From: a virus
Taxonomy: Duplodnaviria; Caudoviricetes
Length of the DNA: 53,013 nucleotides
Reading direction: 5' to 3' (one strand)
IMG/VR virus record: IMGVR_UViG_3300017971_000346
Span: 1 to 53,013 of that record
Each line of letters starts with the position of its first letter. The stretch's first letter is position 1. This document shows positions 551 to 53,013 of the stretch, one piece after another. The notes under the pieces are model-generated. The model saw nothing but the letters and a program-made list of their open reading frames with translations, did no database searches and had not been told where the DNA came from. The position numbers were made by a program, and so were the translations under genes.

Positions 551-583
551 AAAAAAAAGCTTTCCAATCATGTTGAAAAGCTT
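551..583 (-). terminator. Rho-independent terminator closing the capsid operon
   Basis: Minus-strand hairpin AAGCTTTTCAA-CATGA-TTGGAAAGCTT followed by a T run. Confidence 0.7.
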
Positions 584-607
584 CCATAAATCAAGATTCT
601 TATTTTA

Positions 608-4083: not shown

Positions 4084-4102
4084 GGCAAAATCAATACCAT
4101 TC
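4084..4102 (-). promoter_or_regulatory. Candidate sigma54 (-24/-12) promoter for the protease-capsid operon
   Basis: GAATGGTATTGATTTTGCC has GG-N10-GC spacing with TTGC; predicted start ~4073, upstream of the AGGAG SD and ATG 4051. Confidence 0.55.
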
Positions 4103-6252: not shown

Positions 6253-7656
6253 TTAAAATTTCCTGTTCATGAAAGTTTCTCGTAGTTGCATTTTATTAAC
6301 AGGCATGTTAAGTGAACGGTTCAGCGCCCTAGACTGATTACTCAAAAAATGAAAACTGATAGTCCGTTCCAATGCTTCTATAGCATGATTAGACGCAGTT
6401 TTCTCATTTTTATATTTGAACTCTTTTAACTCTGAAATCAAATTAACACAAGATTCGTGTATTTTAATTTGTCCGTTTTTGAACAATGGTTGAATAATCG
6501 ATCTTCTGACTTGAATTTCAATGTTAAAAGGAGCAAAATTCAAACCCTTCTGGGCAAACAGAAACGCCGGTGTTAGTTTGCCTAACAACTCACCGTCTCC
6601 GGATAATCCCTGGCTAGTCCCTTCCTTCTGAAACATCCGTTTACATCCGATATTAACAAACGATTCAAAATTATAAGTTTTATTTATTCCTATAAACGCA
6701 GTGACTGCATTATCAATACTGCTGTCAAATTCATAAAATTCTGAGTTTACCCAATATATTCCATTTTCAATCAATATGTCCAGTAAAACCATAGGTGAAG
6801 TATTCGAAATACCATAATCATTTCCGATCATCCGTTCACCATATTGTGGCCTTTTTATTTTTTCGAAATAATTGTGAGCAGTTAGATCGTAAATCATGCC
6901 TACATTGCCAAACCAGTTCCCCAATATGTATTTCTGAACCCAGTCATTAGAGTACGTTATATACATATCTTCATAATAATTTTTTTTCAGATGTTTCCTA
7001 TTAATCATGGGTTCCGGAGTAATCCCCAAAAAAGAATTATTAATACCTTGCCAATAACCGTATTGGACTTTATGTTTATCGCCACATATTTTAATCTCTT
7101 TTGTTTTTGTTTTTAAAGGAGTCCTAAAAAACAAATCTTTCAGATAGTGATCTCCCCCTTCCGTGTTACACGTGTAAAGCTTTTGATTCAAGACATTTGT
7201 TTGTCGAACTCGACCGCCAGCCAGATCAAAAACATCCTTTATTATCTCTTCAGCTTGGTCCATCCAAAGACCGCCAAGCTTAAGATTTTTTAATTGACCT
7301 ATTTGGTGGGGTTTGTCTACAGCGAAAAAACGAATTTCTGAACCGTTAGGATACCGCAAATGTTTTCTTGTCGAATGCCAATAATAAGCAGGATCTAGTG
7401 GTCCAATTCTATTTCCAAAAATTAATTCCATATATTCAGGTACAGTACTTGATTCTAATTCACCGCTAATATTCCGAAATATGGCAATTAAAATTCCAGG
7501 ATTTTCTAACATCATTTTATGAATTTTCAGGCAAGCAATTGAGGTTTTACCAGAGCCGAACTCACCGGTTAAAAGGATATTTTCTTTTCGGGAATCATAA
7601 AAAGCTTGCTGGTAAGGGTTTAGCTCGAAGGATGTTTTATCTCTAAAATTAATCAA
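6253..7656 (-). CDS. terL: Terminase large subunit
   Basis: NPYQ Q-motif, Walker A GEFGSGKT, Walker B LWMDQAEE, TCN coupling motif, nuclease-region DYG, KIHESCVNLISEL and NHAIEA. Confidence 0.92.
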   Translation of the reverse strand: MINFRDKTSFELNPYQQAFYDSRKENILLTGEFGSGKTSIACLKIHKMMLENPGILIAIFRNISGELESSTVPEYMELIFGNRIGPLDPAYYWHSTRKHLRYPNGSEIRFFAVDKPHQIGQLKNLKLGGLWMDQAEEIIKDVFDLAGGRVRQTNVLNQKLYTCNTEGGDHYLKDLFFRTPLKTKTKEIKICGDKHKVQYGYWQGINNSFLGITPEPMINRKHLKKNYYEDMYITYSNDWVQKYILGNWFGNVGMIYDLTAHNYFEKIKRPQYGERMIGNDYGISNTSPMVLLDILIENGIYWVNSEFYEFDSSIDNAVTAFIGINKTYNFESFVNIGCKRMFQKEGTSQGLSGDGELLGKLTPAFLFAQKGLNFAPFNIEIQVRRSIIQPLFKNGQIKIHESCVNLISELKEFKYKNEKTASNHAIEALERTISFHFLSNQSRALNRSLNMPVNKMQLRETFMNRKF

Positions 7657-9844: not shown

Positions 9845-11315
9845 CGTTAATTTCTCTGATAATTCTATAAATATATCCTTGACTAACTTTTTTACCTGTG
9901 ATCATTGGGTATAGCTTAAATATCGTAGAAGCATTTAAACCGATATTTTTATAACAATAGGCTATAAAAGGTTTACTTTTTGACTGTACGGATTCGTACA
10001 TATCTTTAAGATTTTTCTTACCTTCGACTGACAAATTCAACTCACCATCCTTTGCGTCGTTCAAAATAGCCAGTCCCTGTTCAATTTGTTTGTTCAAAAG
10101 TTCACTATTTAGTTCACTGTCTTTTGAACTAATTGAACTATTTGGTTCACTATTTCTGTGAACGTTCACTAAATTTTGAACCTGTTGTGAACTAATCTGT
10201 GAACCAGAGTGAACTATACCGTGTTCATTTTGTGAACTTTTTGAACTAGTAGATAAACGTCTCTGTTTACTCTTTTTAATGTCAATAATTTCTGTGTCAT
10301 CCCCTTGATTCAGAATCTTAAGGATTTGTTCCATATTTCCGGTAAGATTAGATAACTTTTCATACGTTTGTTTATTCTTAATATCTAATCTGGTAGATAT
10401 AATATCTTCAACTCTGCTTTCTAGGTAACGATTAGACATATCTGAATGTTCTATGCTATCGGTAACGGCACCTAGAATTGAATTTTCAAACAGAGAGTTA
10501 AGACGTAAGATGATGACATAAATATTTCTGATAGCCCAAAAGTAAACCGAAATATAAACCAATATTTCAAGTAGGAACCCTAGAATAAAGTTTGAAAATT
10601 TGATAGATACATTAATTCCAATTGATCCTATAATTGATCTAATGGTGTTGTCCAGGAAGAATGTTTCCGTGTTTCCGTCGTTAACTGCGTCGATTTTTTT
10701 GTTGGAAGTACTTTCCATTTTTTCGGTTAATTCTTTATTTCTATTTGTTAATTTATCAATATCCGCTTGAAACTGATCTTGTTTGTTGTGGAATCTAGTA
10801 GCTGACAATTTTTCGTTTAATACTTCGATGGTCTTATTATTTATTTTTATTTCATCTGCATAGACTTCTGATAATCCGGATGCTTCAGTATATTTTGTCG
10901 AAGTTTTTGCAATCTCATAAGCTCTGATACCCAACTCACTGTGAGAGGCAAATAAAGAAAATAGTAAAGAAATCGCATAAGAGACAATAGCATAATTTAG
11001 TAGTCCTTTACGGCCAAACTTTAATTTAATCTGTTTTTTACTGTCGATGAGTTCCTTAGAATCATACGCATAACTAAAAACTACTAACAAGATTATAGAC
11101 AATGTTTTTATTAAGTCAATTGCTGCTCCTAAAGGTACGGCAAATAATAAAGTATTTAACCACCAATCGATGGTCCAAGCAAAGTGCCCAGATAACCACT
11201 TTATTACTAATTTCATCGTTAAAAACATTGATACAATCGCTAATGAATAAGATAGGAAAGTATCTAGCCACTTTATCTTCGGTTGCTTTAATATATTTTT
11301 TTCATTCATGATCAA
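9822..11315 (-). CDS. Membrane-anchored coiled-coil protein with C-terminal putative HTH
   Basis: About 3 N-terminal TM segments, a coiled coil, another TM (~aa 240-270), a Ser/Asn-rich linker, and C-terminal GLNASTIFKL...KVSQGYIYRII resembling an HTH. Confidence 0.7.
   Translation of the reverse strand: MIMNEKNILKQPKIKWLDTFLSYSLAIVSMFLTMKLVIKWLSGHFAWTIDWWLNTLLFAVPLGAAIDLIKTLSIILLVVFSYAYDSKELIDSKKQIKLKFGRKGLLNYAIVSYAISLLFSLFASHSELGIRAYEIAKTSTKYTEASGLSEVYADEIKINNKTIEVLNEKLSATRFHNKQDQFQADIDKLTNRNKELTEKMESTSNKKIDAVNDGNTETFFLDNTIRSIIGSIGINVSIKFSNFILGFLLEILVYISVYFWAIRNIYVIILRLNSLFENSILGAVTDSIEHSDMSNRYLESRVEDIISTRLDIKNKQTYEKLSNLTGNMEQILKILNQGDDTEIIDIKKSKQRRLSTSSKSSQNEHGIVHSGSQISSQQVQNLVNVHRNSEPNSSISSKDSELNSELLNKQIEQGLAILNDAKDGELNLSVEGKKNLKDMYESVQSKSKPFIAYCYKNIGLNASTIFKLYPMITGKKVSQGYIYRIIREINDENYKIT
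10059..10246. repeat. Array of 17 TGAAC/GTTCA pentamers in both orientations
   Basis: Copies at 10059, 10079, 10092, 10100, 10112, 10125, 10134, 10145, 10159, 10164, 10177, 10188, 10200, 10210, 10223, 10233 and 10242. Confidence 0.9.
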
Positions 11316-21400: not shown

Positions 21401-21450
21401 AATGTACAAATTTAATTTTAATAATGCAAGTGTTTTTTCAAATTTTTTTT
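21401..21450 (-). promoter_or_regulatory. Leftward early sigma70 promoter
   Basis: TTGCAT(21429-21424)-17nt-TACATT(21406-21401). Confidence 0.8.
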
Positions 21451-21509: not shown

Positions 21510-21557
21510 AAATAATATAAAAAAACACTTGCATTTTAGGTTTTTTATATGTACATT
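21510..21557 (+). promoter_or_regulatory. Rightward divergent sigma70 promoter
   Basis: AAAAAACAC-TTGCAT(21529-34)-17nt-TACATT(21552-57); same hexamers as the leftward promoter. Confidence 0.8.
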
Positions 21558-32011: not shown

Positions 32012-32737
32012 ATGATAAGCATTAGTTCCGCTGTAGGTAGTCGTGAACTTTTGCCGTTATTCAATGAATCTGCAAAGCTTGCAACTATCCCCTTTGCAGA
32101 TTTTATTTTTTGTGGGTTTAATGGCAAAGAAAATCCGATCATAGCGATTGAACGAAAAACAGTTTCCGATCTAACATCTTCAATAATAAGCGAACGCCTG
32201 GTTGGCCAACAATTGCCGGCAATGTTTGATAACGCCGGGACTTGCTATTTAATGATAGAAGGAAAAATGGAATGTGCCAAAAATGGTACTGTGAAAGGAA
32301 ATTATTCCAAAATTGCATTTGATAAATTATTTAAGCCTTTGATAACTCTCGGTGAATTTTTAGATTTACGTATCATTTATACATTTTCTGAATTTGATAC
32401 TGTCAGAAAAATTGAAGCGTTGTACCAGTACTATAAAAAACCATATAGTACGCATCGTTCATTTTTTGCAAACCACCTAAATGTTCCGCCCGTAAAAAAG
32501 CCGATTTCCAGGATCACCTATTTAACCAGATTATTAGCATTAATCCCCTTTATCGGCTTTGTCCGAGCAAGTAAAATAAGTCAGCAGTTTGATTTACACG
32601 ATTTTGCAAATTACATCTTACATCGCGACGGATTCGATATTACAAAAATTCCAGGAATAGGAGTTTCTACAAAAAGACAATTAGATTATTTTCTTAACGA
32701 CGTGGAGAAAGAAAAAGATGAAAATTGCTTATATTGA
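32012..32737 (+). CDS. ERCC4/XPF-family nuclease with HhH motifs (start re-called)
   Basis: SRE, ADF, IERKTVSDL.SSI...RL..Q; IPFIG and IPGIG HhH motifs. Confidence 0.85.
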   Translation: MISISSAVGSRELLPLFNESAKLATIPFADFIFCGFNGKENPIIAIERKTVSDLTSSIISERLVGQQLPAMFDNAGTCYLMIEGKMECAKNGTVKGNYSKIAFDKLFKPLITLGEFLDLRIIYTFSEFDTVRKIEALYQYYKKPYSTHRSFFANHLNVPPVKKPISRITYLTRLLALIPFIGFVRASKISQQFDLHDFANYILHRDGFDITKIPGIGVSTKRQLDYFLNDVEKEKDENCLY

Positions 32738-34181
32738 AGATTTTAGGCATTCATACGCCGATCTTTGTTTTTTCGGTTATACTTCCGACGTTATGATTAA
32801 TTTTAAAAATGTAATCCTTCCGTTAGCCGGATTGAATGTATTTAAATTAAATCCTTTCCATTTATGGAATTTTAAAAGTCCGCAAGACCGTGAGCTATAT
32901 CCAAACCAAATAAAAGCAGGATTCAAACAACTTAAGTCGATGTTAAAAAGAAAACAGTTTGATTATATCATTGCTGCTGGAAAGGGAATTAATATTGCGT
33001 TAGAATCACCGGAACCGTTAATCATGCAATCCGGCATTCCGTATATCTCAAAACATCTTCCTGATTCATTAATATTACCGACCTTTCCCGGAAATAAGTG
33101 GCAATTTTCAGATAAGATATTATTGCAAGTTTTTAAAGATTACACTAATTTTGGCGAATACATAAAATTTAATATCCGCAAACCGACGATTCCAGGTGAA
33201 ATCGATAATAGTATAGAGATAAGCAAAGTTGAAGATTTGAAAGATTATTTAAATAAAGGATTCGATCATATAGCAATTGACACGGAGTTTGATGAAAATA
33301 AAGTACCGTTTTCATTGCAATTTTCGATTAACGGTATCAAAGGAGTTTTTATTCATGCAGATTCAACAAAAGTACTGACTGAGTTAAATCACCAACTACA
33401 TAAAAATAATCCAAAATTAATTATACATCACAGTTTAGTCGATCTTCCAATGATGGAAAAACTTGGTATAGATTATAATAAAAATATCAAAGATACTATG
33501 CTAATGGCAGCATATCAAGGAAATATTCCGAAAGGATTAAAAGCACTGGCATATCGACTACTTAATATAAAAATGCTTAATTATAATGAAGTAGTGCGCA
33601 CTGTTCAAAACAAACTTGCAATCGAATATTTAAACAAACTTAGTGAGATCGAATTTCCAAACCTTCCAGAGCAGATGATTTATAAAAAAATTGACAAAAA
33701 CGATATTTGGGAACATCTTGCTCCTTATAGACCACAAAATTTAAATACTCGAATTAACAAACTAATTTGGAAATATTCCGGTTACCCGGGTGAATATATT
33801 GAAAAAGACATCTATGAAATTCAAAAAAAAATTATTCGAAAAAAATTAAATATTCGTTCGGTACAAAAAAAACGCTTTCCACAACTTTGGAAGCTTGTTT
33901 CTGATGAAGATACATTAAAAGAATTCGATGAACAAAAGCAAACAATATTGGAAAAATATTCAGGTGATCTAGAAATCGACCTTGCTTATAAATGGAAAAT
34001 TATGGATAATAAAGATCAAGCCATCGAGGCATTGGGCGAAATGCCTATCGCTTCATTGAAACACGTTGATCGAAAATTAGCAGTTAAATATTCCGGGACT
34101 GATGCAATCGTAACATACAAAATATATTTCTTTCTGAAACAACTGTTAAATAATTATTATAGAGGGTTTAAAAATTGTTAA
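32718..34181 (+). CDS. DNA polymerase A N-terminal subunit: UDG-like domain plus 3'-5' exonuclease
   Basis: YIIAAGK / ILPTFP UDG-like remnants; ExoI IAIDTE, ExoII HHSLVDL, DTML, ExoIII YSGTDA. Confidence 0.75.
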   Translation: MKIAYIEDFRHSYADLCFFGYTSDVMINFKNVILPLAGLNVFKLNPFHLWNFKSPQDRELYPNQIKAGFKQLKSMLKRKQFDYIIAAGKGINIALESPEPLIMQSGIPYISKHLPDSLILPTFPGNKWQFSDKILLQVFKDYTNFGEYIKFNIRKPTIPGEIDNSIEISKVEDLKDYLNKGFDHIAIDTEFDENKVPFSLQFSINGIKGVFIHADSTKVLTELNHQLHKNNPKLIIHHSLVDLPMMEKLGIDYNKNIKDTMLMAAYQGNIPKGLKALAYRLLNIKMLNYNEVVRTVQNKLAIEYLNKLSEIEFPNLPEQMIYKKIDKNDIWEHLAPYRPQNLNTRINKLIWKYSGYPGEYIEKDIYEIQKKIIRKKLNIRSVQKKRFPQLWKLVSDEDTLKEFDEQKQTILEKYSGDLEIDLAYKWKIMDNKDQAIEALGEMPIASLKHVDRKLAVKYSGTDAIVTYKIYFFLKQLLNNYYRGFKNC

Positions 34182-35428
34182 AACAATCAAAATTGTTTTT
34201 TGCGGATATTGATTCAGCGTGCATCCCGTTTATCAATGAAATGCATAAGAACGGCATTTTGATTGATAAAGAACATTTTAAAAAAATTGAAATTCAGTTA
34301 CTTAATAAGCTCTCAAAGATTCAAATTAAAATAGATAAATATTGCGGTCATCATATAAACCCGGCATCGAGCGATCAAGTAGTAGCAAAGTTAAATGAAT
34401 ACAATCTAACGTCTGTAAATTCTGAAACGGATCAAATCACATCCGCGGATCATGATACTTTATCTGGTATTGATTCGAATGAATTTGTTGAACTTGTTAT
34501 AAAGTACAAACAAATTGACAAACTTTTATCAACTTATATAACTAAATACCCGGCATTAATTGATGAAAATAATTTTCTTCATACTGAATATTCGCAGGCA
34601 AGGGTTGAAACTGGCAGACTTTCGTCGGCCCGGCCCAACCTACAAAATATTCCCTCCGGCAAAACAGAGGAAGGAAAATTAATTCGATACGGATTTATTG
34701 CTGAGCCTGGGTTTGATTTACTTCAACGTGACTATTCAGCTCAAGAAATCTATTGGACCGCCATATTATCAGGTGATCCTACAATGTTAAATGTTTTACT
34801 ATCCGGTGGGGATATTCATGATAATACAGAAATGAAGATTTTTGGCACTTGCAAAAAACATAGAAAACCTTCAAAGATGATCAATTTTGGCGTTATGTAT
34901 GGTATTTCAAAATATGCGTTACATCGAAAATTTATTACTGAAGGCGTTACTCAATTTAGTCAAAATGACTGCCAAACTTTTATCGATGAATTTTACAACG
35001 CCTATCCATTAATCCGAACATATATCCGGATGATCGAACAATTTATTAAAAGATACGGATATATTCAAAATTATTATGGGCACCGGCGTAGAATTCCAGA
35101 GATAAAATTAAAATCAAAACGTTCTCATGCATCCGCATTACGAAAAGCAGTAAATTATACGATCCAAAGTACGTCTGCATTCCAAATGAAATTAGCGATG
35201 AGTGCGTTATATGATTTAATAAATTCTGATTGTTTGTATGATATTTTAAAACCACGGATGCAAGTACATGACGAATTAATCTTATCATGCAGAAGTTCAG
35301 AGATCGAACATTGTAATCAAATACTAGTAAATGCCTTTAAAAACGCTTGCACTGATTTTGAACTAAAATTCAAAAGTGAAGGAAAAGCCGGAAAACGTTG
35401 GGGAACACTTAAAACGCTAGGAGACTAA
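34175..35428 (+). CDS. polA: Family A DNA polymerase, polymerase domain
   Basis: TGRLSS..PNLQNIP, motif A DYSAQE, motif B K.INFGVMYG, motif C QVHDEL. Confidence 0.92.
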   Translation: MLKQSKLFFADIDSACIPFINEMHKNGILIDKEHFKKIEIQLLNKLSKIQIKIDKYCGHHINPASSDQVVAKLNEYNLTSVNSETDQITSADHDTLSGIDSNEFVELVIKYKQIDKLLSTYITKYPALIDENNFLHTEYSQARVETGRLSSARPNLQNIPSGKTEEGKLIRYGFIAEPGFDLLQRDYSAQEIYWTAILSGDPTMLNVLLSGGDIHDNTEMKIFGTCKKHRKPSKMINFGVMYGISKYALHRKFITEGVTQFSQNDCQTFIDEFYNAYPLIRTYIRMIEQFIKRYGYIQNYYGHRRRIPEIKLKSKRSHASALRKAVNYTIQSTSAFQMKLAMSALYDLINSDCLYDILKPRMQVHDELILSCRSSEIEHCNQILVNAFKNACTDFELKFKSEGKAGKRWGTLKTLGD

Positions 35429-35429
35429 A

Positions 35430-35663
35430 ATGTTTAATGAATTAAAAAAACGAGCAAAATTAAATAAAAATATTAGAGTGAAATCACTTTTTTCAAATCT
35501 TACATCTGTACGATTTTATCGAATTGGGGATTTTTATTATTACACTGTGATCGATTCTAATAAAAATTTGGTAGATCGTATAGGTAAAAATTTTAAACGT
35601 AGACCATTTTTGACTAAAGACCATGCAATCAAAGATTTTATTAATACCGCACCTAACATTTAA
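35430..35663 (+). CDS. Hypothetical protein
   Basis: AGGAG SD. Confidence 0.6.
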   Translation: MFNELKKRAKLNKNIRVKSLFSNLTSVRFYRIGDFYYYTVIDSNKNLVDRIGKNFKRRPFLTKDHAIKDFINTAPNI

Positions 35664-35676
35664 AAAAGGAAATGTC

Positions 35677-35919
35677 ATGAATACTAATTCTTTTAAAAAA
35701 TTAAAAAAAGGCGATATTATTCAAAAAACAATGTTTGGGAAAAATGTCTGTTTAGAAATTTCCACAAACTTAATGACAAAATTAGAGCAAGGAAAAACCA
35801 AATTATTCTATCGTTGTGTTATTTTATCGTTCGGCGAAAATAAAAATCATCAAGTTATAGGCAACACAATAGATGTTTGTAACAGTAATGCTATTAGGAA
35901 AATATCTACCAATGGATAA
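35677..35919 (+). CDS. Small SH3/KOW-like hypothetical protein (start re-called)
   Basis: AAGGA SD; F.KLK.GD.I N-terminus shared with the next gene. Confidence 0.55.
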   Translation: MNTNSFKKLKKGDIIQKTMFGKNVCLEISTNLMTKLEQGKTKLFYRCVILSFGENKNHQVIGNTIDVCNSNAIRKISTNG

Positions 35920-36154
35920 ATTAGATTTTATAAAGTTAAAGGTCAATGATTATATAACAGATACTTTGTTTCCTGGTTACTCGGTCATATACAGAATAAT
36001 CAATATAACAAAATCAGGAAAAATTGTTTTTATGCAGGTTAGATGTGAACTTAAGAATTTGCAGGATTTCCAGAAAGTTCATACGTCTGGGGATTACGGA
36101 CGTTTCAGAAAAATTACAAAAGAAAAAGTATTTTCTATACTATTTCCAAAGTAA
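35912..36154 (+). CDS. Small SH3/KOW-like hypothetical protein (start re-called)
   Basis: MDKLDFIKLKVNDYI. Confidence 0.55.
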   Translation: MDKLDFIKLKVNDYITDTLFPGYSVIYRIINITKSGKIVFMQVRCELKNLQDFQKVHTSGDYGRFRKITKEKVFSILFPK

Positions 36155-36536
36155 TCCTGACTCCGAACTGGACATCTATAGTAATATCATTGATCCCACT
36201 AAAAATTGACTCCCACGTCGGCGTATTGCCATTCAAATATACCTCTCCCTGTTCAACGGTTATATCTAAAATGCCTTTCTTTAACGTGGTGAATGTTAAG
36301 GTTCCTATCGATCCTATAAAATCATCGATCACAGAAGATTCGTTATTAAACGCAAGTACTAATTCCCCTTGCGTATCATTTGCCAAATTAGCAACTGAAT
36401 GAGAAAATAATTGTGATAAATTACTTTCATCAAACTGAACTAATTCCGGATTATATTTTATCCGGAAACCGACTGTGTTGATCGGTTCAAAAATTTCTGC
36501 TTTTATGTTTAGTTTAAATTGCTCGTTAATTGTCAT
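36135..36536 (-). CDS. Stand-alone cohesin-like domain protein
   Basis: F.L.I......I..VGFRIKYNPELVQF...GELVLAF...GSIGTLTF....G..DI matches the cohesin beta-sandwich pattern; no signal peptide. Confidence 0.7.
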   Translation of the reverse strand: MTINEQFKLNIKAEIFEPINTVGFRIKYNPELVQFDESNLSQLFSHSVANLANDTQGELVLAFNNESSVIDDFIGSIGTLTFTTLKKGILDITVEQGEVYLNGNTPTWESIFSGINDITIDVQFGVRITLEIV

Positions 36537-37243
36537 TAGTATTGCTCCTTAATATCATAATCACCCATTATTTCATCAAATTTAATTAAATCGTGTAAAT
36601 CAATCTCAAGATTCCTGTTAAAATCAAATGAATGTCTAAATTTCCCTGAATTATGATCGTGTCCTAAACATTTGTCAAATAGCTGTAATTCATAAATATC
36701 GATTTTGCCATCCCCATCAACGTCACCGGTTTTAGGTATTCTAAAAAGCCGGTTAATATTAATCATTGGAAACGGTGAATATTTACCGAAATATTTTATG
36801 TTAATAGTTTTATCAACCCAATTATCAAACACGGGTAACTTTTGTATACTTTGAATTAAATTTAACGTATCAGATATAGTCGAATCTATAGAAATAACTG
36901 CTCTCATCGTTGTATCGTCCCAAAAGTTAACAAATAATTGAGAATCAAAATATTCAAAATACGTCGTATCCTTATAAAAATAAATCGGTATTGAACTACC
37001 GCTAACGTTACCTGATATATCAATTGCATATATCCGAACTTCTATTCGCCCATCCCAGGTTATAGAGTCGCAATTAAAAACAGTATCATAAACCGCTACC
37101 TTGAAATAACGTTCATCCTGGGTAAATTCAACTTCATAATGACTTAAATCATCTTCAGGATTTTGATCCCAACGAATTACCATTGTAAACGCCTGAATCA
37201 CAAGACATATAATAATCAAAATAATATTAATGTAAGTTTTCAT
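36536..37243 (-). CDS. Secreted FN3-like plus dockerin-like protein
   Basis: Signal peptide; WDQNPEDDLSHYEV...AIDISGNVS FN3-like region; duplicated Ca-loops GDVDGDGKIDIYEL and DFNRNLEIDLHDL. Confidence 0.75.
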   Translation of the reverse strand: MKTYINIILIIICLVIQAFTMVIRWDQNPEDDLSHYEVEFTQDERYFKVAVYDTVFNCDSITWDGRIEVRIYAIDISGNVSGSSIPIYFYKDTTYFEYFDSQLFVNFWDDTTMRAVISIDSTISDTLNLIQSIQKLPVFDNWVDKTINIKYFGKYSPFPMININRLFRIPKTGDVDGDGKIDIYELQLFDKCLGHDHNSGKFRHSFDFNRNLEIDLHDLIKFDEIMGDYDIKEQY

Positions 37244-37476
37244 TAATCTCGACCTTTCACATCCAAGTACTTTGAATAACTTGAATTTCCTAAAAATGCA
37301 GCAAATACAAGTACCATACTAGTGTTAAACGCTGACCAGAGAGGCATTAAAGGAGCCGGGTTTTCTATATTTAACATTTTTAGGGTAACGATAAAAAATA
37401 ACACCATAAACGAAGTAAAACCGATGAACCGTCGTGATGTTATAATTTTTAATAATTTATTAATATGAATATTCAT
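37243..37476 (-). CDS. Holin-like membrane protein (2 TM)
   Basis: TSRRF N-terminal motif, two TM segments, basic tail. Confidence 0.55.
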   Translation of the reverse strand: MNIHINKLLKIITSRRFIGFTSFMVLFFIVTLKMLNIENPAPLMPLWSAFNTSMVLVFAAFLGNSSYSKYLDVKGRD

Positions 37477-37488
37477 TTAAAATACCCC

Positions 37489-37857
37489 TTATCGTTTAAT
37501 CCAAACAACTTTATAGAAAATTAAAAATGTAAATAGCGCTATTGTAACAAAAGCAAAGATGATGAAATAATCAGTTATGTCAATTTTCGCGCCTATATAT
37601 ACCGCAAGTCCCGCCATAAACGTCCGGGTAAAATCAGATAAATGCCAAAAATCAAAACGAAAAATTCCAAAATATAATTTTGAATCTTTCCAATCACTTT
37701 TCAGGAAAGAATAAAACATTTTTTTATAAGTAGGTGATCGATTATACTCATTTTCTGTCATAAAGTCAAAGATACTATTCTCAAAATGATGATTAATAGT
37801 ATCACAGATAGATTTGAAAAATCCAAACATAATCGCAGTCATAAAAAAATAAAACAT
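37489..37857 (-). CDS. Membrane protein
   Basis: Three hydrophobic segments; D......SIF...W...D.WH pattern. Confidence 0.6.
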   Translation of the reverse strand: MFYFFMTAIMFGFFKSICDTINHHFENSIFDFMTENEYNRSPTYKKMFYSFLKSDWKDSKLYFGIFRFDFWHLSDFTRTFMAGLAVYIGAKIDITDYFIIFAFVTIALFTFLIFYKVVWIKR

Positions 37858-38123
37858 TATTTTCCTTTCTCGACTAACAGGCCGTATATTTTATCAAAAC
37901 GATCATCGATTGAACGTTTAAATTCATTAAATTCCTTTGTTGAATTATCACAATGTGATACTAGTGATATTTTCAACTGCTTAATCTCGGCTTCCAGAGT
38001 CTTAATCTTTGAGTCTCTTGCCCCTAGAAACATATTCAAGAATGTAGTGATTAATAAGAGTCCCGTCACGGTAAATTGTATTATATCTTTCCAGTTCCGA
38101 TCAAATCCAGGTTTCAGAGCCAT
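37857..38123 (-). CDS. Single-TM coiled-coil protein (holin/hemolysin-like)
   Basis: One TM then a coiled coil ending RFDKIYGLL. Confidence 0.5.
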   Translation of the reverse strand: MALKPGFDRNWKDIIQFTVTGLLLITTFLNMFLGARDSKIKTLEAEIKQLKISLVSHCDNSTKEFNEFKRSIDDRFDKIYGLLVEKGK

Positions 38124-38126
38124 TTT

Positions 38127-38669
38127 TTATCGTCTCCTAGCCAATACAAACTTTAAATAAGTAGTCCCGGAGTGCGATCCGCCATCCTTTAAAAACAATC
38201 TGAAAACATCACCGGACAAAACAGGAAGTAAAACAGCTGGAAAATTTCCCTCTGCTGTAATCTTACCTGTTAAATCATCCGAAAAATAACAATTAGATAA
38301 CGATGCTCCGGTATACGCCAAACTTGCGGCATTGGAAAAACACGAATCCGCAAATATTGAACTTTTATTGGCGTTTTGAATTATTACCGAAATATCCGGA
38401 GTCCCGCCGCTAACATAAGCTTGTACACTAAAATCAGACCCAATGTTTTGAAAATATTTCGAATAAACGGAATCCCCTGAAACAAACATAATTTCAAAGC
38501 TATCAATTGCAGCATCCGTAAAAGTTGTATCATTACCGTTCGATGTACGGTAATCAAAATCAATTAGCGTACTCATCGAACGATTGCCGGAAATTTCCCG
38601 TTGCCCGTATCCAATGGTAACAAAGGAAATCAAAAATAATAAAATTAATTGTTTGTATTTTCTATCCAT
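38127..38669 (-). CDS. Secreted hypothetical protein
   Basis: MDRKYKQLILLFLISFVTIGYG-Q signal peptide; beta-rich mature region. Confidence 0.7.
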   Translation of the reverse strand: MDRKYKQLILLFLISFVTIGYGQREISGNRSMSTLIDFDYRTSNGNDTTFTDAAIDSFEIMFVSGDSVYSKYFQNIGSDFSVQAYVSGGTPDISVIIQNANKSSIFADSCFSNAASLAYTGASLSNCYFSDDLTGKITAEGNFPAVLLPVLSGDVFRLFLKDGGSHSGTTYLKFVLARRR

Positions 38670-39628
38670 TTTTCAGTCTCCGAATCTTCAATATTATATT
38701 TTTTAGTTTTATATGTAAGAACACGCTCTGTTATTCCTAGTAATTCAGCGGATTCTCTTTTATTATTTTTTGTAAAAATTAACGCTTTAATTATCGTATT
38801 TTTTTCAGTTTCTTCTAAATTCAACCTAGAAGTATCTAAATTTAAAAATACTTTTCCATCATACCCCTTCACTGCTGTTCTTGAGTATTGGTAATTATTG
38901 AAATCTAAATTATTTTTTGTTAAGGAGCCATTGCAAAGTAAACACCCTTTTAAAATAAAGTTTTTTAATTCGCGGACATTGCCGGGCCAAGAATAACTTT
39001 TTAAATGATCAAATATATTCTGTTCAATCTTAATATTTTTTTCTAATTTTACCATATTTTGACCTACTAGAACAGGTACGATCAAATCTAGATCTTCTAG
39101 CCTATCGCGTAAAGCAGGGATGTTAAAGGTTATTTCATTCAGTCGATATAACAAATCTTGCCTGAAAACTTTAGTATCAAAAATATCTTGATTTGTAGCT
39201 GAAATTAAACGAAAATCTGAATGAAAAACAGTGGCACCGCCGACTTTTTTAAACTCTTTTTTTTCAATTACATGCAGTAGTTTAGCTTGCATATCTGGTA
39301 AAATTTCTCCGATTTCATCTAAAAACAGCGTAGAGCCATTCGAAAGTTGAAAAATTCCGTCCTTTGCTTTCGTTGCCCCTGTAAACGCTCCCTGAACATG
39401 CCCAAAAAATTCACTTTCAAATAATCCGGTCGCTATACTGGCACAGTTGATACTCCTAACACTATGCAATTTTCTATCGCTATTTCTATGGATGAATCCT
39501 GCGATCTCACCTTTTCCGGAACCAGTTTCACCGATTAACATAATATTAATGTCAAACTTTGCTGCTTTTTTGATTTCCTTTAAAGTATTCTTAAACGCTA
39601 TATTTCTTGTTTTATCGATTTCTATCAT
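38645..39628 (-). CDS. Sigma54-dependent enhancer-binding protein (AAA+ plus Fis HTH) lacking a regulatory domain
   Basis: GETGSGK, ESEFFGHVQGAFTGA, LFLDEIGE, QAKLL, RLISATN, FRQDLLYRL, WPGNVREL, C-terminal Fis-type HTH. Confidence 0.95.
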   Translation of the reverse strand: MIEIDKTRNIAFKNTLKEIKKAAKFDINIMLIGETGSGKGEIAGFIHRNSDRKLHSVRSINCASIATGLFESEFFGHVQGAFTGATKAKDGIFQLSNGSTLFLDEIGEILPDMQAKLLHVIEKKEFKKVGGATVFHSDFRLISATNQDIFDTKVFRQDLLYRLNEITFNIPALRDRLEDLDLIVPVLVGQNMVKLEKNIKIEQNIFDHLKSYSWPGNVRELKNFILKGCLLCNGSLTKNNLDFNNYQYSRTAVKGYDGKVFLNLDTSRLNLEETEKNTIIKALIFTKNNKRESAELLGITERVLTYKTKKYNIEDSETEKWIENTNN

Positions 39629-41193
39629 AAATTTTCAATGACCTTTATTTTGAATTGTCTGTTCAGCGATCCTGAATGAAAAATTTCCTCTAAGTCAGTT
39701 TGTAGTACCATATTATCAAAATAATTGCGTCCTATGCCTACCGCAACGTCCTGATTATAATGATTTAAAATTTCATTATCGTTCATTAGATAATCATTCA
39801 ATAACAATATCTCATCGAAAAGACATTTTGCATAATTTGTACTTGATCCAGATGAACCGATGAAAACGCTGTCAACGTCTGCTGGAATTATTATCGAATT
39901 TCCGAAAGTACCGATATAACTACCATTTAAATAAAATTTAGCTCCGTCTGCTATGGAACCATCAAACAGAATAGTAACAAGATTCCAATCATCTTGAACA
40001 AATCCATACGGAGTTCCACTTACCGACAATGACTGAGTACTTCCGTTTTCATCTACCATACTGATTTGTATTGATCCGGAAGTATTCATTCGAATAATCC
40101 ATTTCGAAGATGCTGAGCTATAAAAATTAAAAAATGTCCGGTAGTCTGTATTATTTTCATCCCAGTCAGGTTTCATCCAAAATTGTAAAGTCCATTTGTT
40201 TTTATTGAACTTTTCTGGCAAATCTACTTGACAGGTTTCTGCATTCTGGGTAACTGCGTCCGGTTTGTAGCTAGATGAATGTTCAGTCGGTTCCAACTGT
40301 GCTTTACATACTATAATTGAATCCCCAATGTCATCTAGAAATATTTTTGCACCCCAATAATTCCCTGCACCAGCAATAGTGTGAGTTACTTCATAACGGG
40401 TAAATTCAGACGTAGCATAAAAAGTTTCATAAGCCAAAGTTCCTAGTCCTGAATCTTCGATACCTAATTGGAATAACGTGCCACCGTCCGCACTTTTGAC
40501 CCACACGGAAAAAGTAACAGTTTGGTATGTAATTGTTGAATACACCGTTCTTTGATAATTATTCCCACCGGCAACGGAAGTACAATAAAGACGTTCCGCT
40601 TCTAAATTACCTTCAATATCTTCAATACTATTCGAAGTCACTGTTAGATTAGTTTGAACCCAACCCTGTTGAGAATATGTAGTCGGCGGTGTTGCAATTG
40701 GGTTTGTACCAAATGAATTAGATTTATTTAGGAAGTTGAATCCTGAATCTTCAATCGATAAGGCACCACCGTATTTTCCGGAAACAATTTTTGGAGTGTT
40801 TTCAGCCGCGGTTTCTAATAAACCAGTCAAATAATCAATATACTTTGCGGTTCCTGTTCTACTTAGTGTTAAAGCAACCTTATCATTAGTTTCAAAATAA
40901 TATGAATCAAAAGAAATATAAAATCCCAAAGCACGGTCAATCCAAAGCTCAAAAGAAGTTCCGTCTTTTACATACTCAAACCAGTTGCGTATTAAATTAA
41001 AATTTTGTGGTGTTATCTGACTCCGTCCTAATTCGAGTATATGTCTAACAAAGCTATATTGAGTCTCTATCCCTCCAGCAGCAGTCGTTTGTGAAGATTT
41101 CGAAGTTTGGTGAGTGAGTCTCAAGACATCCCACATATTCTCTATGTCAACAATTTTATCTGTATCAAATCTAAACCTTCCGCCAATATACAT
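39625..41193 (-). CDS. Tail protein with carbohydrate-binding-like and C-terminal LamG domains
   Basis: YTFSVWVK-like (VTFSVWVK)...AQLE module; WTLQFWMK...WNLVT...FYLNG...FDEI LamG_3 pattern. Confidence 0.75.
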   Translation of the reverse strand: MYIGGRFRFDTDKIVDIENMWDVLRLTHQTSKSSQTTAAGGIETQYSFVRHILELGRSQITPQNFNLIRNWFEYVKDGTSFELWIDRALGFYISFDSYYFETNDKVALTLSRTGTAKYIDYLTGLLETAAENTPKIVSGKYGGALSIEDSGFNFLNKSNSFGTNPIATPPTTYSQQGWVQTNLTVTSNSIEDIEGNLEAERLYCTSVAGGNNYQRTVYSTITYQTVTFSVWVKSADGGTLFQLGIEDSGLGTLAYETFYATSEFTRYEVTHTIAGAGNYWGAKIFLDDIGDSIIVCKAQLEPTEHSSSYKPDAVTQNAETCQVDLPEKFNKNKWTLQFWMKPDWDENNTDYRTFFNFYSSASSKWIIRMNTSGSIQISMVDENGSTQSLSVSGTPYGFVQDDWNLVTILFDGSIADGAKFYLNGSYIGTFGNSIIIPADVDSVFIGSSGSSTNYAKCLFDEILLLNDYLMNDNEILNHYNQDVAVGIGRNYFDNMVLQTDLEEIFHSGSLNRQFKIKVIENL

Positions 41194-41221
41194 TTTAATA
41201 CCTCTTATGGATAAAATAAAT

Positions 41222-41374
41222 TGAACTAATTTAAAATTTCAGTGAACCGGAATTGAACTAAAATGAACCATTAGTTCAAAATTGCTAAACTTTTTGAACT
41301 ATATTGAACCTGACTGAGTGAATTTTAACGCTATCGATAAAATTTGGTTCAATTTGCATTTAAGCGTAGTGAAC
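41222..41374. repeat. Intergenic array of 9 TGAAC/GTTCA pentamers
   Basis: Copies at 41222, 41243, 41254, 41264, 41274, 41295, 41305, 41347 and 41370. Confidence 0.85.
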
Positions 41375-43768
41375 TTAATCAAAATAATCTGTTGTTGAGT
41401 ACGTAGCAAGTAATTTTATTTGTTTTATTTGAACTAATTTTACTGTAGTTGGTGGGTATGTACCGGACGTACCAACCCAGTCCGCACGAACCCTTATTAC
41501 TGTAGCTCCACCTAGATTCAACACATACATATCTGCGTACAATTTTTTTGAACTAGTTTCATCATAATAAATTTTTTTATATATTTCTTTTACATCTGTA
41601 CCAGAAGGATTTTGGATTTTTAGGTAGACTTCAATATATTCTGAATCTGAACCTAACGATTCGTTAGGTTGCTGAAGTTCAAACCTATACATAACACGAT
41701 CAACGTTTGTCCAAGTTGGTGAAATGTCCGCTACAGCATCGCCGGGTTGCAATGTTCCAGCAGCATGATCTGAATTTTCAGTAAGATCGGTTTCATAAAT
41801 ATCATCTTCCACTATTACTTCACCGCTCCAGGTTCCTGCGTGTCTATATCCTAAATAAGATGTCAGTTCAGCTATTACATCCAACTTTGAACCGCTAAAT
41901 TTATGAATTATATTGGTTATTTCGCATCCATCGTTTTCAAATCCCTTAGTGCCATTTAGAGGCCAAAGCAACGTGGGATACGTAAGATTAATAACATCCC
42001 CTGTTTGGTGCAACATTTTTTTAGAGGATAATTTAGCATTAATTTTCAGTGGGGGATTTCCAAAACGAGTTACAATTTTATTCATCAGATAAGTTTCATC
42101 TGCTGTCAGAAAGTATAAATCGTTTAATTCAATTCCATACGGTTTTTGTTCACCATAAACAACGTCTGTAGTTACATTCCTAATCATTCGTTTTTTATTA
42201 TAATTTCCGACTTTTATTGTTTCTACTAATCTATCTGTGAACTGTTTATAATCAACTTTCTGACTTTCTGATAAATAAATAATATCATCCTGAGTAATGT
42301 CCCACAAACCAGAATTTTCCACGTGAACATCAAAAAATAATACTCCTATTTTATGATTAGACGTTAGTATAAATTTCAATCCTAATGATTTGAAAATCAT
42401 CGATTCTAAAAAATCTAAACCATCATCTAAACCATCATCTATATCGAAAATATATTGTTCACGGAGCCAATTAACAGTATAACCTATCTTATTGGATATC
42501 CATTTTTGCCACTCGTTTTTAATTTGATTAACATCAAATAAACTTATTGACAGGCCCATACCGTAATCAGAAACCCCATTATCCCAGTCACCGTTTAATC
42601 CGGTTCCGGTACTCGTTAGAATACCCATAACTAAATCAAGAGATTCAGTCGTATAGTTATAAAAATGTAATATCTCTTTTATTGTAGCCCCTTCGCTATG
42701 ATCTTCCGAAGCATTTCCAAATGCTCCGCGTGTTCCCAGTGTAAAAGTAGTTGATGTTTTTGCGGTGTATTCGACAAATTCACTGTCAATTTTCAATAAC
42801 GTTTTTCTATGTGTTCCGACCGTTCCTTCAGTATCCCAGCTTGGCGTTTGTGCGGTTTGAAAATCTGCTGTAGAAGCAACCCCAATTACTTCAATATCTT
42901 CCTTGATTGATAAATTATCGATCCAAAATTGATCACCGGAATTAGCCAATGTAATTGAAATCGTCATATTTCCAGGATCGCTATTCGTGGTGAAAGAAGT
43001 TGCTTGGCTACCGGATGAAATAGACAAAGCAGTTGCGGAACTGGCAATCCCTACTGTTAAACTCGCGGTCGGGGAACCGATAACATTTGAAATACTGTAG
43101 CGTAGAATATACCGAGTATTTGGTTTTAAATTTTGGGCAAAGTCAGATTTATATTGATATATTGTACCGGCATCCGGTGAACCGGTCGCAAATACAATTA
43201 CATTTGTATACGTTGCATTCCATGCTGCTGCTCCAGAAAATCCCCAAAAGATATTAGATGAAAAATCACCGTTTGATAAATGTTCTTGCGCCGTTGCTGG
43301 GAACCCATTCGACAATGTAGTCCGAGCCAGATTTCTAAAAATCGGTTTAGCTTTTAAAATTTCGTTTTTTGCGCGTAATTCAAAAGTTAAACCATTGTTA
43401 GTAATATTAAAATCAATTATTTGTGCAATTGGAAAAGTGACAAAATCTGATTCAGTTAGACTTTGAAAACCAACCTTGACAGTCAAATCTTTTCCAATTA
43501 GATCATACCCAACTAAAGATGTAACTGCGTCATTCAAATTAACAGCTTTTAGTACAAACCCGCCAAACTGAGTCCTGCAACTGAACTCATCAAACATAAG
43601 CGGTGTTATTGTTAAATCAGTTCCAATTTTATAATAATCCGTGGTAATCCCAGAGAATGTATTACTACAGATTTTCAATGTAGAAATACCTTGAATTTCT
43701 GCAATCCATACCCAGTCCTGTGAATCTTGCGCTAATAATGCATTAAAATTACTGTTTGCTTCGATCAT
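41375..43768 (-). CDS. Tail hub/baseplate-like protein
   Basis: 797 aa, directly after the tape measure; internal CBM-like insert. Confidence 0.7.
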   Translation of the reverse strand: MIEANSNFNALLAQDSQDWVWIAEIQGISTLKICSNTFSGITTDYYKIGTDLTITPLMFDEFSCRTQFGGFVLKAVNLNDAVTSLVGYDLIGKDLTVKVGFQSLTESDFVTFPIAQIIDFNITNNGLTFELRAKNEILKAKPIFRNLARTTLSNGFPATAQEHLSNGDFSSNIFWGFSGAAAWNATYTNVIVFATGSPDAGTIYQYKSDFAQNLKPNTRYILRYSISNVIGSPTASLTVGIASSATALSISSGSQATSFTTNSDPGNMTISITLANSGDQFWIDNLSIKEDIEVIGVASTADFQTAQTPSWDTEGTVGTHRKTLLKIDSEFVEYTAKTSTTFTLGTRGAFGNASEDHSEGATIKEILHFYNYTTESLDLVMGILTSTGTGLNGDWDNGVSDYGMGLSISLFDVNQIKNEWQKWISNKIGYTVNWLREQYIFDIDDGLDDGLDFLESMIFKSLGLKFILTSNHKIGVLFFDVHVENSGLWDITQDDIIYLSESQKVDYKQFTDRLVETIKVGNYNKKRMIRNVTTDVVYGEQKPYGIELNDLYFLTADETYLMNKIVTRFGNPPLKINAKLSSKKMLHQTGDVINLTYPTLLWPLNGTKGFENDGCEITNIIHKFSGSKLDVIAELTSYLGYRHAGTWSGEVIVEDDIYETDLTENSDHAAGTLQPGDAVADISPTWTNVDRVMYRFELQQPNESLGSDSEYIEVYLKIQNPSGTDVKEIYKKIYYDETSSKKLYADMYVLNLGGATVIRVRADWVGTSGTYPPTTVKLVQIKQIKLLATYSTTDYFD

Positions 43769-45711: not shown

Positions 45712-45740
45712 AGCATTCCTTGCTCAACTATCGTACTGAA

Positions 45741-46360
45741 TTATTTTTTACTTATTTGTCGCCAAGCGCTATTTTTAACAGAATTAAATTCCCTTGTTTT
45801 AGCTTGCTTATTGGCGATAAAATTTTTTATATACGAAAAACCAGAAATTACGTATGAATATTCTAAAGTTCCCAATACAGGAAAATGATCTTTAAATAGA
45901 TCGATTCCTAAAAATCCTATTTCTCCGAAAATGCCGTTACGCAAATACTTAAAATAGAATTCAAGAATCAATCTATTTAAAGGAAAAATTTCCGGTTCAT
46001 CGGTAACATCTGGCATAGTAAAAAAAACTATGCCACTTTCAAGTTTTTTGCATATGATTTTCCATCAAAAAATGTTTCCGGATCAATCATTTTTCTAGAA
46101 ATGAAAATAAGACGTTTCTTTACTTCAATATTTTCATCCCCTAAAATTACAAATTCTTTGAATTTTTCTTTTGTGAATTTCACGGTTCCATTCTCGTCTC
46201 GGATACCTCTCCAATCATGCACCTTATTCAAAAAAATATCGTGGAAAGCTTCATCTTTTGGTTTGAAATCCTTATAAGGGATATATTCTATCAAATATCT
46301 TTCCCCTTTTTCAAATTCAACCCATGCAGTGTATTTTTTTTGTTCTGAAATGTTAATCAA
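45741..46360 (-). CDS. Tail assembly chaperones G (46028-46360) and GT via -1 frameshift into 45741-46016
   Basis: A AAA AAC at 46049-46043; the -1 frame is open into ATG 46016; 9-bp hairpin at 46011-46035. Confidence 0.8.
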
Positions 46361-51434: not shown

Positions 51435-53013
51435 TTATGGCCTTGTATAGTGATAAAAAACGTTAAAAGAAATCCAATCGCATACGTCGGTCGGTCTAAC
51501 AATTGCAAAATGTTCACCATTCGCTACGGTAGAAGTGGTTAACGTGGTTTCAACTCTATAATAGATATTTTCACCATTTTCTGTTATTCGAGTTGAGTCA
51601 ATTCTAGCGGGTGAACCACCGGAATATTTATGTTTTACGAATATAACATCAACGTCATCGGTAGATGAAAATAAGTTAATACTGTCGATTGTTACGGTCG
51701 CTCCGGTCCAATTCTGCCAGAGTCGAATTGTATCACTAGACGCGGAAACCGGAGTATCAATAACCTTATGAAAATAGTCTGTAACAGCATCGTACTCGGA
51801 TTTTTTTAAATAATCCTGAGTCGTTTCACAAAAATCAAACACGGCATCGCTAGAAGGGATAGAATCAGTATCACCGTTCGTTACTAGAACAGAAACGTTG
51901 ACATCGATTGCATCGTTATTAGTGATCGTTAAACCATCACCGTCATAATGGACTAAACTATCCCCAAAATTTGCTTGAAATAACCGTGTATTCATTGTAT
52001 CTGCCAAAGAATATACATCTGTATAGTCGATCGGACAATGGGTTGATACATAAATTTTCCCTGCTGAAATATGCGAATATGCAACATACCCTACAATTGC
52101 CTTGTAACCAGACGTAGGTTCCGTGGTAGTGAATTCCCCCGCGACTGAATTAGACAAATATAATAAATCACCATCATCATAAGCAGATGTATTCAAATTC
52201 TTTACAAGGCCAAAAGTGGTTACATAGCCGTTCGAATTATTTTCAATTGTATGTGTTGCTACACCTAGCATATGACTAGTCCGGTTCGCATCCGCTTTCG
52301 CAAGCTCAATTGTAGGCAATTGATTTGTTGCACTATCTAGATAAACTACTTTTCCGTCCGTAATATCAGACCCAGAAATATTTCTAACTCTCACGTAACT
52401 TTCTTGACCTAATTGTAATGATACTTCGCTATCTTCTGAATAACAAGTAAGCGCGTGGTCATTGTCATCATAATACACCAATCCTTCATTATGTGCCGGT
52501 GGGGTTGCTTTTGGTTTCATTTGTATAGTCGCGAACTCATGATTTTCTACTGAATCACCAACGTCTGCGCGTAGAGTGTATAACGTTATATCGTACTGAG
52601 TCGCTAATTCTGTTGAATCTACAACAAAAGACCGATTAGATGAAATATCACCACCGCCATTCAAGCCGTATCCTGCTGTTAAAGTCACTCCAGAGTGTGC
52701 CACGTGTTCATCCGCGACAAAATCGGAAAACCCATCATGTTCCGCACCACCGCTTTCCGCCGCTCCAATTGTTGATCTTACGGTCCCTGCGTCGGCATCA
52801 TCGACAATAGTTGCGCCAAAAGCGCTTATTTCGGTACTCGCTGGTAATGATAACGTTTTCAAATCGGTATCTACCTCGGAGTCCATTAACGCTCCAGCCG
52901 ATGTGACATTATCTGTATCGGTAACATCTGCGCCATCCTCAACGTTAATGTCTGACCTGACTTCCGCGTAACTTCGACCCTCAATTCCGTTCGCGGTTAA
53001 TTTCGCGTAGTCA
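51435..53013 (-). CDS. Partial fibre/decoration-like protein (open to right end)
   Basis: Frame stays open from 53012 (DYAKLTANGIEGRSYAEVRSDINVEDGADVTD...); contains VRNISGSDITDGKVVY...GYVTTFGLV...GDLLYLS, a cement-like domain. Confidence 0.75.
   Translation of the reverse strand, partial: DYAKLTANGIEGRSYAEVRSDINVEDGADVTDTDNVTSAGALMDSEVDTDLKTLSLPASTEISAFGATIVDDADAGTVRSTIGAAESGGAEHDGFSDFVADEHVAHSGVTLTAGYGLNGGGDISSNRSFVVDSTELATQYDITLYTLRADVGDSVENHEFATIQMKPKATPPAHNEGLVYYDDNDHALTCYSEDSEVSLQLGQESYVRVRNISGSDITDGKVVYLDSATNQLPTIELAKADANRTSHMLGVATHTIENNSNGYVTTFGLVKNLNTSAYDDGDLLYLSNSVAGEFTTTEPTSGYKAIVGYVAYSHISAGKIYVSTHCPIDYTDVYSLADTMNTRLFQANFGDSLVHYDGDGLTITNNDAIDVNVSVLVTNGDTDSIPSSDAVFDFCETTQDYLKKSEYDAVTDYFHKVIDTPVSASSDTIRLWQNWTGATVTIDSINLFSSTDDVDVIFVKHKYSGGSPARIDSTRITENGENIYYRVETTLTTSTVANGEHFAIVRPTDVCDWISFNVFYHYTRP
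51504..51522 (-). promoter_or_regulatory. Candidate sigma54 promoter ahead of the beta-helix/neck/tail genes
   Basis: GAATGGTGAACATTTTGCA has GG-N10-GC spacing and is 14/18 identical to the 4085-4102 site. Confidence 0.45.

Follow-up and report, generated by a model that had tools for sequence, protein, structure and literature searches.

A phage-resident sigma-54 activator without a regulatory domain, encoded among tail genes, and a tentative case for sigma-54-like late promoters

Phages retarget host RNA polymerase by sigma factors, anti-sigmas, antiterminators, sliding-clamp activators and whole polymerases, and sigma-54 promoters, because they are silent without an activator, would make an ideal tight switch for late genes. 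What, then, does a gene for a bacterial enhancer-binding protein (bEBP) do among the tail genes of a tailed phage of marine sediment? The window we analysed is the whole of the IMG/VR virus record IMGVR_UViG_3300017971_000346 (53,013 bp, Caudoviricetes, classed linear, CheckV completeness estimate 51%), and the gene, the only bEBP gene in the record, lies at 38645..39628 on the minus strand. A preliminary description of this DNA had proposed that it encodes a constitutive sigma-54 activator serving the phage's own late promoters. We find what appears, from its domains and residues, to be a genuine and intact sigma-54 activator that lacks a regulatory domain and is native to the phage; our tentative reading is that it fires late promoters of the phage itself.

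The gene and the elements of its product on which this assessment depends are as follows.

38645..39628, minus strand: bEBP gene with ATG start, 327 amino acids (aa), comprising an AAA+ sigma-54 interaction domain, a lid and a Fis-type helix-turn-helix (HTH)
39509..39532, minus strand: Walker A, GETGSGKG, residues 33-40
39374..39391, minus strand: GAFTGA loop, G80 A81 F82 T83 G84 A85
38696..38818, minus strand: HTH_8, the C-terminal Fis-type HTH, residues 271-311 (E 4.1e-8, 33.3 bits, cut-off 22)

Pfam places Sigma54_activat (PF00158) at residues 10-167 (E 2.1e-52; 177.6 bits, cut-off 20.2) and AAA_lid_14 at residues 174-236 (E 2.2e-13), and in an alignment with 17 other bEBPs (18 sequences) the phage protein keeps 48 of the 48 invariant columns. 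These include Walker A residues G33, G36, G38 and K39, the whole GAFTGA loop at 80-85, which is the motif contacting sigma-54, the Walker B residues D104 and E105, the arginine fingers R156 and R162, and the sensor II block G216-L221 with R219. Solved bEBPs match the protein with E values down to 3e-52. The complete bEBP core plus Fis HTH that had been described is therefore borne out by the domain matches and the invariant columns, and so is the near-absence of anything before the AAA+ domain: Sigma54_activat starts at residue 10 and Walker A at residue 33, and because an in-frame TGA stands 9 nt 5' of the ATG there is no N-terminal extension and no room for a sensor or receiver domain. It is solely from this missing N-terminal domain that we infer a possibly 'constitutive' activity. 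Among NCBIfam models, 27 bEBP models match, led by PrdR (246 bits), NifA (244), RtcR (241) and PspF (199), and since the curated cut-off is reached by 0 of the best 25 of the 27, the protein is a bEBP but the orthologue of no named regulator. Kinship with RtcR and its CARF sensor was considered and rejected: the match to the PADLOC RtcR_PspF2 CARF-AAA-HTH profile (PDLC01993-01995) takes in just the AAA+-HTH part of the profile (positions 173-481 of 481) and so no CARF domain, and the score is a generic one (276.5 bits, against 361-390 for 7 ordinary bEBPs on the same model; 280 bits for the sister phage protein discussed below). The 10 most identical representatives carry a receiver domain (6), PAS (1), GAF (1) or no N-terminal domain (2), and none is of the RtcR/CARF type.

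The gene overlaps both of its neighbours, as had been claimed, by 4 nt upstream and 25 nt downstream.

39625..41193, minus strand: upstream gene, tail-fibre-like, 522 aa with Laminin_G_3; its stop (TGA) and the bEBP start (ATG) interlock in a 4-nt overlap, ATGA
38127..38669, minus strand: downstream gene, 180 aa, signal-peptide-like N-terminus, no family match; its start lies 25 nt within the bEBP gene

Its composition is that of the genome around it: GC is 0.313, GC at third codon positions (GC3) is 0.247, and its codon usage correlates at 0.938 with that of all other genes, where the means for the 21 genes with 250 codons or more are 0.342, 0.282 and 0.905. The stretch 35000-46000 is spanned with 0 differences by two public assemblies, which may be the record's own source, and a run from a third study contains identical fragments, one of them within the bEBP gene (38994-39233); all datasets containing the locus are labelled sediment or seawater metagenomes, and none of those listed is an RNA dataset. 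Because the neighbours overlap, the codon usage is native, the assemblies agree and close kin are absent, this is a resident phage gene and neither an assembly artefact nor a recent capture.

The phage setting given in the preliminary description likewise stands, with terminase, portal, protease, scaffold, head and tail genes in the record, and the bEBP gene does lie within a co-directional late (tail) gene block. The genes that frame the argument are these.

6253-7656, minus strand: terminase large-subunit gene
4091-6250, minus strand: portal gene, ATG at 6250
2933-4051, minus strand: protease gene, ATG at 4051
2488-2877, minus strand: scaffold gene
1406-2440, minus strand: major head protein gene (phrog_1005, 2e-63)
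52886 down to 36135, minus strand: neck/tail block, including a tail completion protein gene
43765-45711, minus strand: tape-measure-like gene, in the tail block 5' of the bEBP gene
41375-43768, minus strand: tail-fibre-like gene, in the tail block 5' of the bEBP gene

Replication genes occupy the plus strand from 21.5 to 35.4 kb and include a DNA polymerase (phrog_17, 1.5e-82); DNA polymerase I is divided over two overlapping plus-strand genes, a 3'-5' exonuclease (32718-34181) and a polymerase (34175-35428). We found no integrase or resolvase in the 53-kb record, no tRNA genes and no match to Rfam families, and among its products are neither sigma-70 r2 or r4 domains nor a sigma-54 DNA-binding domain. 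Within the tail block the beta-helix tail gene (49472-51432, minus strand) stands apart in composition (GC3 0.435 where about 0.28 is typical; codon-usage r 0.80), and this outlying composition suggests that it was recently exchanged, as a receptor-binding or depolymerase module.

Two kinds of candidate promoter lie in separate parts of the genome. The first kind is a sigma-70-like family, TTGAAAAAACACTTG(A/G)C(T/A)T, in which an upstream element enters the -35 box and a TAtaTT-like -10 box follows 17 nt later. It has five members.

12450-12464, minus strand: early promoter family member
15649-15663, minus strand: early promoter family member
17750-17764, minus strand: early promoter family member
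21427-21441, minus strand: early promoter family member
21517-21531, plus strand: early promoter family member

The pattern gives 6 matches where 0.86 are expected, the sixth, at 50197 on the plus strand, being taken as chance; the family is limited to 12.4-21.5 kb, with a divergent pair at 21.4-21.6 kb, and a late region of roughly 25 kb is left without this promoter type. Generic sigma-70 promoter scans of the record were at chance (80 matches against 73.4+-7.9 and 68 against 61.8+-7.1). The early family and the strong Shine-Dalgarno sites of the phage point to a host with canonical sigma-70 promoters; Shine-Dalgarno strength and the -35/-10 boxes argue solely against hosts of the Bacteroidota type. 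At 8056-8085 on the minus strand, at the head of the packaging/late block, a terminator-like hairpin of 12 pairs and a T run reaches right up to where the gene at 7653-8048 begins, with the ribosome-binding site in its 3' arm, which suggests that entry into the late genes is under read-through or antitermination control.

The second kind of promoter is represented by four candidate sites, all on the late-gene strand and all in the late region; a terminator-like hairpin ends the unit that the first of them would head.

4085..4101, minus strand: site A, AATGGTATTGATTTTGC, spanning the stop codon of the portal gene; the protease ATG at 4051 follows 34 nt downstream
51505..51521, minus strand: site B, AATGGTGAACATTTTGC; the probable beta-helix tail gene ATG at 51432 follows 73 nt downstream
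6533..6549, minus strand: site C, AAGGGTTTGAATTTTGC, within the gene for the terminase large subunit; the portal ATG at 6250 follows 283 nt downstream
38933..38949, minus strand: site D, AAGGGTGTTTACTTTGC, within the bEBP gene; the ATG at 38669 follows 264 nt downstream
555..585, minus strand: strong terminator-like hairpin, 13 pairs and a T run, ending the protease-scaffold-capsid unit that site A would head

Sites A and B are identical at 14 of the 14 specified positions of GAATGGT-N4-ATTTTGC and a third site differs by 1 mismatch, so that with up to 1 mismatch this pattern has 3 matches against 0.03 expected, a number reached in 0 of 100 shuffled sequences. The related pattern AAKGGT-N4-AYTTTGC has 4 matches, sites A-D, against 0.02 expected. 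The GG-N10-GC spacing is exact in all four sites, as is TTGC, and TGG is present in two, with GGG in the other two. Because the sites fall in two reading frames of four unrelated proteins, the motif belongs to the DNA level and not to a protein repeat. The -24/-12 candidates that the preliminary description had placed at 4085 and 51505 thus exist and belong to a four-site family, but generic matches are at chance; its scheme of sigma-70-like early and sigma-54 late transcription stands in its first half, with the sigma-70-like family limited to the early region and no phage sigma factor, while the sigma-54 half is only weakly supported.

Two arrays of TGAAC repeats had been put forward as possible enhancers for the bEBP.

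10061..10260, strand not assigned: array 1, 16-17 GTTCA/TGAAC units with consensus wAGTTCAm, spaced mostly 9-14 nt, inside the open reading frame (ORF) 9822-11315
41215..41375, strand not assigned: array 2, 9 GTTCA/TGAAC units, spaced 10-11 or 21 nt

The arrays are real and of roughly helical spacing, with 16 units per 200 nt in 10061-10260 and 9 in 41241-41440, where 50 shuffles gave 4 at most, but nothing ties them to the bEBP, and an enhancer role is a candidate one only. Array 1 encodes a low-complexity linker of the product of ORF 9822-11315, for which an Atlas look-up pointed to winged-helix clusters, though below threshold (score 0.77). The lambda origin lies inside gene O, and because the arrangement here is similar, a fair reading of array 1 would be that of iterons for a replication initiator. 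Array 2 occupies the only sizeable gap of the tail block, directly 5' of the operon of the Laminin_G_3 (LamG) and bEBP genes, and no sigma-54-like element was found downstream of it. Iterons would explain the TGAAC arrays as well as a bEBP enhancer would.

Comparison with other genomes places the bEBP far from everything in the collections searched. A word-indexed search, scoring just the 8,000 candidates with the most words in common, listed 119 non-self proteins at 36-43% identity; HMMER over 1.84 billion representatives gave 153,341 matches at E up to 0.001, the single-stretch non-self matches among them reaching at most 45% identity and scores of about 220 bits, where self scores 718; and among the matches listed from 185,579 species genomes, bEBPs are 33-43% identical and come from many phyla. 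Scans of viral contigs with one protein at a time, the bEBP and the LamG protein, yielded no close relatives of either, relatives of the major capsid protein are 29-35% identical and sit on fragments 8-35% complete, none of which contains PF00158, and isolated phages share at most 31% protein identity with this phage and have no DNA match to it. A conserved-pattern search of IMG/VR matched 341 stretches, 286 of which encode bEBP relatives, many near contig ends. The best 80 of the 286 were fetched and are 30-42% identical to the phage bEBP; 10 of these 80 are complete ORFs in which Walker A lies no more than 75 residues from the first start that is possible, 3 more are cut by contig ends, and the remainder have long N-terminal regions.

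A quick maximum-likelihood tree of 95 rows (77 viral and 17 cellular sequences besides the phage bEBP, with L021, L040 and L055 left out for their length or for want of a Walker A pattern) shows no single phage clade of the kind that the preliminary description had asked about; 64 of the 77 viral rows carry N-terminal sensor domains, and the viral forms without an N-terminal domain need at least 4 origins. The sole tree partner of the phage bEBP is L008 (Shimodaira-Hasegawa-like approximate likelihood ratio, SH-aLRT, 92, below the 95 mark, both on long branches), from a complete 99-kb phage (G001) with direct terminal repeats and 45% GC. This phage carries, at 9881-10882 and 14261-15175, a bEBP without an N-terminal domain and with GAFTGS for GAFTGA, and an integrase 3.4 kb away. 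It shares with our phage a small membrane protein (31% identity over 73 aa), the TGAAC motif is unclustered in it, and no repeated sigma-54-like motif was seen there. INPHARED gave 65 matching records, all below 60% identity; we rejected these 'phage' matches as phage relatives, as they are mostly mislabelled bacterial contigs. In PHROGs v4, phrog_7998 (339 positions) matches end to end, residues 8-312 of the query against profile positions 22-318 (E 5.2e-41).

We speculate, at a probability of about 0.42, that the phage makes a PspF-like activator that fires its own late sigma-54 promoters. The tail operon would supply the bEBP, whose activity would be set by the timing and amount of its synthesis with no signal needed; its rings would, by ATP hydrolysis and the GAFTGA loop, open closed complexes of host RNA polymerase and sigma-54, as family knowledge suggests. 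Its putative targets, through sites A-D, would be the protease-scaffold-capsid unit, the beta-helix tail gene block, the portal gene and the accessory genes 3' of the bEBP gene, and early and replication genes would be served by the separate sigma-70-like promoter family. As the bEBP gene is downstream of site B on the same strand, the activator may also reinforce its own synthesis. The four-site family and the dichotomy of early and late promoters lend this role suggestive support. A fuller version, in which a virulent phage uses sigma-70-like early promoters, has host sigma-54 opened by the sensor-less bEBP at four late promoters and employs the helically phased TGAAC arrays as loading platform or remote enhancer, seems to us doubtful.

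Several observations weigh against firing of late promoters by the bEBP. Both extended sigma-54-like patterns were fitted post hoc, after looking, and a fair test of the extended motif yields a P of only about 0.01: in an unfitted simulation that takes all GG-N8-TTGC sites and asks how often four share at least 5 of 12 free columns, this occurred in 4 of 400 Markov-1 genomes. GG-N8-TTGC sites as such number 13 against a simulated mean of 13.2. The sigma-54 consensus according to PMC12316311 is TGGCAC-N5-7-TTGCT, and the CAC of TGGCAC is absent from all four sites, T replacing its first C in each, with GGG in place of TGG at two. Across the record, TGGCACN5TTGC with up to 2 mismatches has 27 matches against 22.2+-4.7 and TGGN9TGC has 15 against 11.4+-3.2, both at chance, and the generic sigma-54 consensus with up to 1 mismatch has 1 match, as does its backward-read control, so that enrichment of generic sigma-54 promoters was rejected. 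Sites C and D are intragenic and would give leaders of 264-283 nt. Intragenic sigma-54 sites are reportedly widespread in E. coli. Within 300 nt upstream of sites A-D there is no shared enhancer (one common 9-mer, against 0-5 in 15 control sets). Because the activator gene itself is in the late block, some other factor must start its expression; the model presumes rpoN in the host; and the collections searched contain no close relatives in which the gene or the sites might be conserved.

The main alternative, which we regard as unlikely though deserving of attention, is that the bEBP acts on host sigma-54 promoters (for example of metabolism, envelope, motility or stress operons) and so prepares the cell for the phage, the four sites being a coincidence of composition. 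Phages often carry accessory genes after tail-fibre genes, and the bEBP gene lies just 3' of a tail-fibre-like gene; the N-less bEBP of the tree partner L008, 3.4 kb from an integrase, has a lysogeny-side context; and phage-borne bEBPs recur, as the 286 of 341 IMG/VR pattern matches and phrog_7998 attest. Such a role would also sit well with the lack of an enhancer beside the phage sites and with core-site counts at chance. It fits less well with a phage that has its own DNA polymerase and no integrase or resolvase in 53 kb, in which a late regulator would have little time for host genes, nor does it account for the four-site family and its placement, and the bEBP gene is translationally coupled to structural genes instead of forming a self-contained cassette.

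It is also conceivable that the protein interferes with the host, poisoning enhancer-dependent transcription through mixed rings or occupied sigma-54 holoenzyme and so shutting off flagella, pili and stress functions. The missing regulatory domain and an unusual divergence (the 276.5 bits against 361-390 on what is in effect a generic bEBP profile) are what one might expect of such a protein, but a poison subunit needs no intact Walker B, arginine fingers, sensor II or HTH, all of which are kept here, and we consider this improbable. Least probable of all, to the point of being nearly negligible, is a passenger or artefact, that is, a chance capture from the host or a chimeric assembly, without a role in the phage. 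Viral-contig bEBPs do mostly carry sensor domains (the 64 of 77 tree rows), many lie near contig ends, suggesting the host flanks of prophage calls, and the top 'phage' database matches are mostly mislabelled bacterial contigs. This locus, though, is identical in two full-length assemblies and in the third-study fragments, overlaps phage genes on both sides in native codon usage, and has cellular homologues that are all at most 45% identical; the overlaps, assemblies and codon usage largely refute this reading. Firing of the phage's own late promoters thus remains our preferred, if tentative, account.

Beyond the 180-aa protein gene lie three genes for small membrane-like proteins, one for a dockerin-domain protein and one for a weakly matching cohesin-like protein. 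Among the bEBP neighbours there was no family match to a PspA-like or HrpV-like inhibitor, and several of the small neighbours are without any family. At the end of the tail/accessory block, within 36135-37243 on the minus strand, the gene for the dockerin type I protein (24.8 bits, cut-off 22.9) stands beside the cohesin-like gene, whose match is weak (17.5 bits, below the cut-off), and the two may be a phage-borne cohesin-dockerin pair. In the early region, a 313-aa protein encoded at 25149-26090 on the plus strand matches Pfam Gad1 (Gabija anti-defence 1) at 27.6 bits against a cut-off of 27 (E 2.6e-6). Joining the ends of the record would fuse its open-ended ORFs, 3-527 and 51435-53012 on the minus strand, in frame (2 + 1 leftover bases); the same proteins, however, are encoded by a contig of 55,267 bp, and the record may just be incomplete.

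Why might it matter that a phage invests in such a protein? If the fuller version of our reading is true, this would be the first virus-owned sigma-54/bEBP transcription switch, as far as literature searches reach, and a phage that brings the activator alone would have a compact orthogonal timing device, possibly useful as a synthetic-biology part. If the target is a host regulon instead, the gene would be an accessory gene for regulation of a hitherto unstudied kind.

Among known systems, the closest in design is PspF of E. coli, which like the phage bEBP has an N-terminal AAA+ sigma-54 domain and a C-terminal HTH with no regulatory domain in cis; residues 14-235 of the PspF chain align to 11-227 of the phage protein, and TIGR02974 matches at 1.1e-58. 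PspF is controlled in trans by PspA. The phage protein differs from PspF orthologues in falling far short of their cut-offs (TIGR02974, 199.1 against 443.55 bits; NF008622, 170.7 against 529), and PspF is chromosomal whereas this bEBP is phage-encoded. HrpR and HrpS of Pseudomonas syringae, which we set beside it by description, are likewise bEBPs without a regulatory domain. Their activity is set by expression and a trans-acting inhibitor, and the two work together as a heteromer at a type III secretion promoter, whereas the phage has a single bEBP gene. Full-text searches of the literature found neither a canonical phage-encoded bEBP nor sigma-54-dependent phage late promoters. The nearest case is Htm (Gp204) of Mosigvirus AV110, according to the preprint 10.64898/2026.10.06.757011 a phage AAA+ protein of bEBP-like structure and a proposed partner of sigma-54 RNA polymerase, an early protein with no GAFTGA loop, no C-terminal HTH and an altered Walker B. 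Unlike Htm, this bEBP has all the canonical motifs and the HTH, and its gene is in the late block. A family of bEBP size, phrog_7998, is already catalogued in phage or prophage genomes, with no annotated function. The closest parallels in proposed role are T4 gp45/gp55/gp33, the RinA/ArpU-type proteins and lambda Q, which redirect host RNA polymerase to late genes; late activation in T4 is reportedly also enhancer-like. These late activators are of unrelated families, and none is known to use sigma-54 or an AAA+ bEBP.

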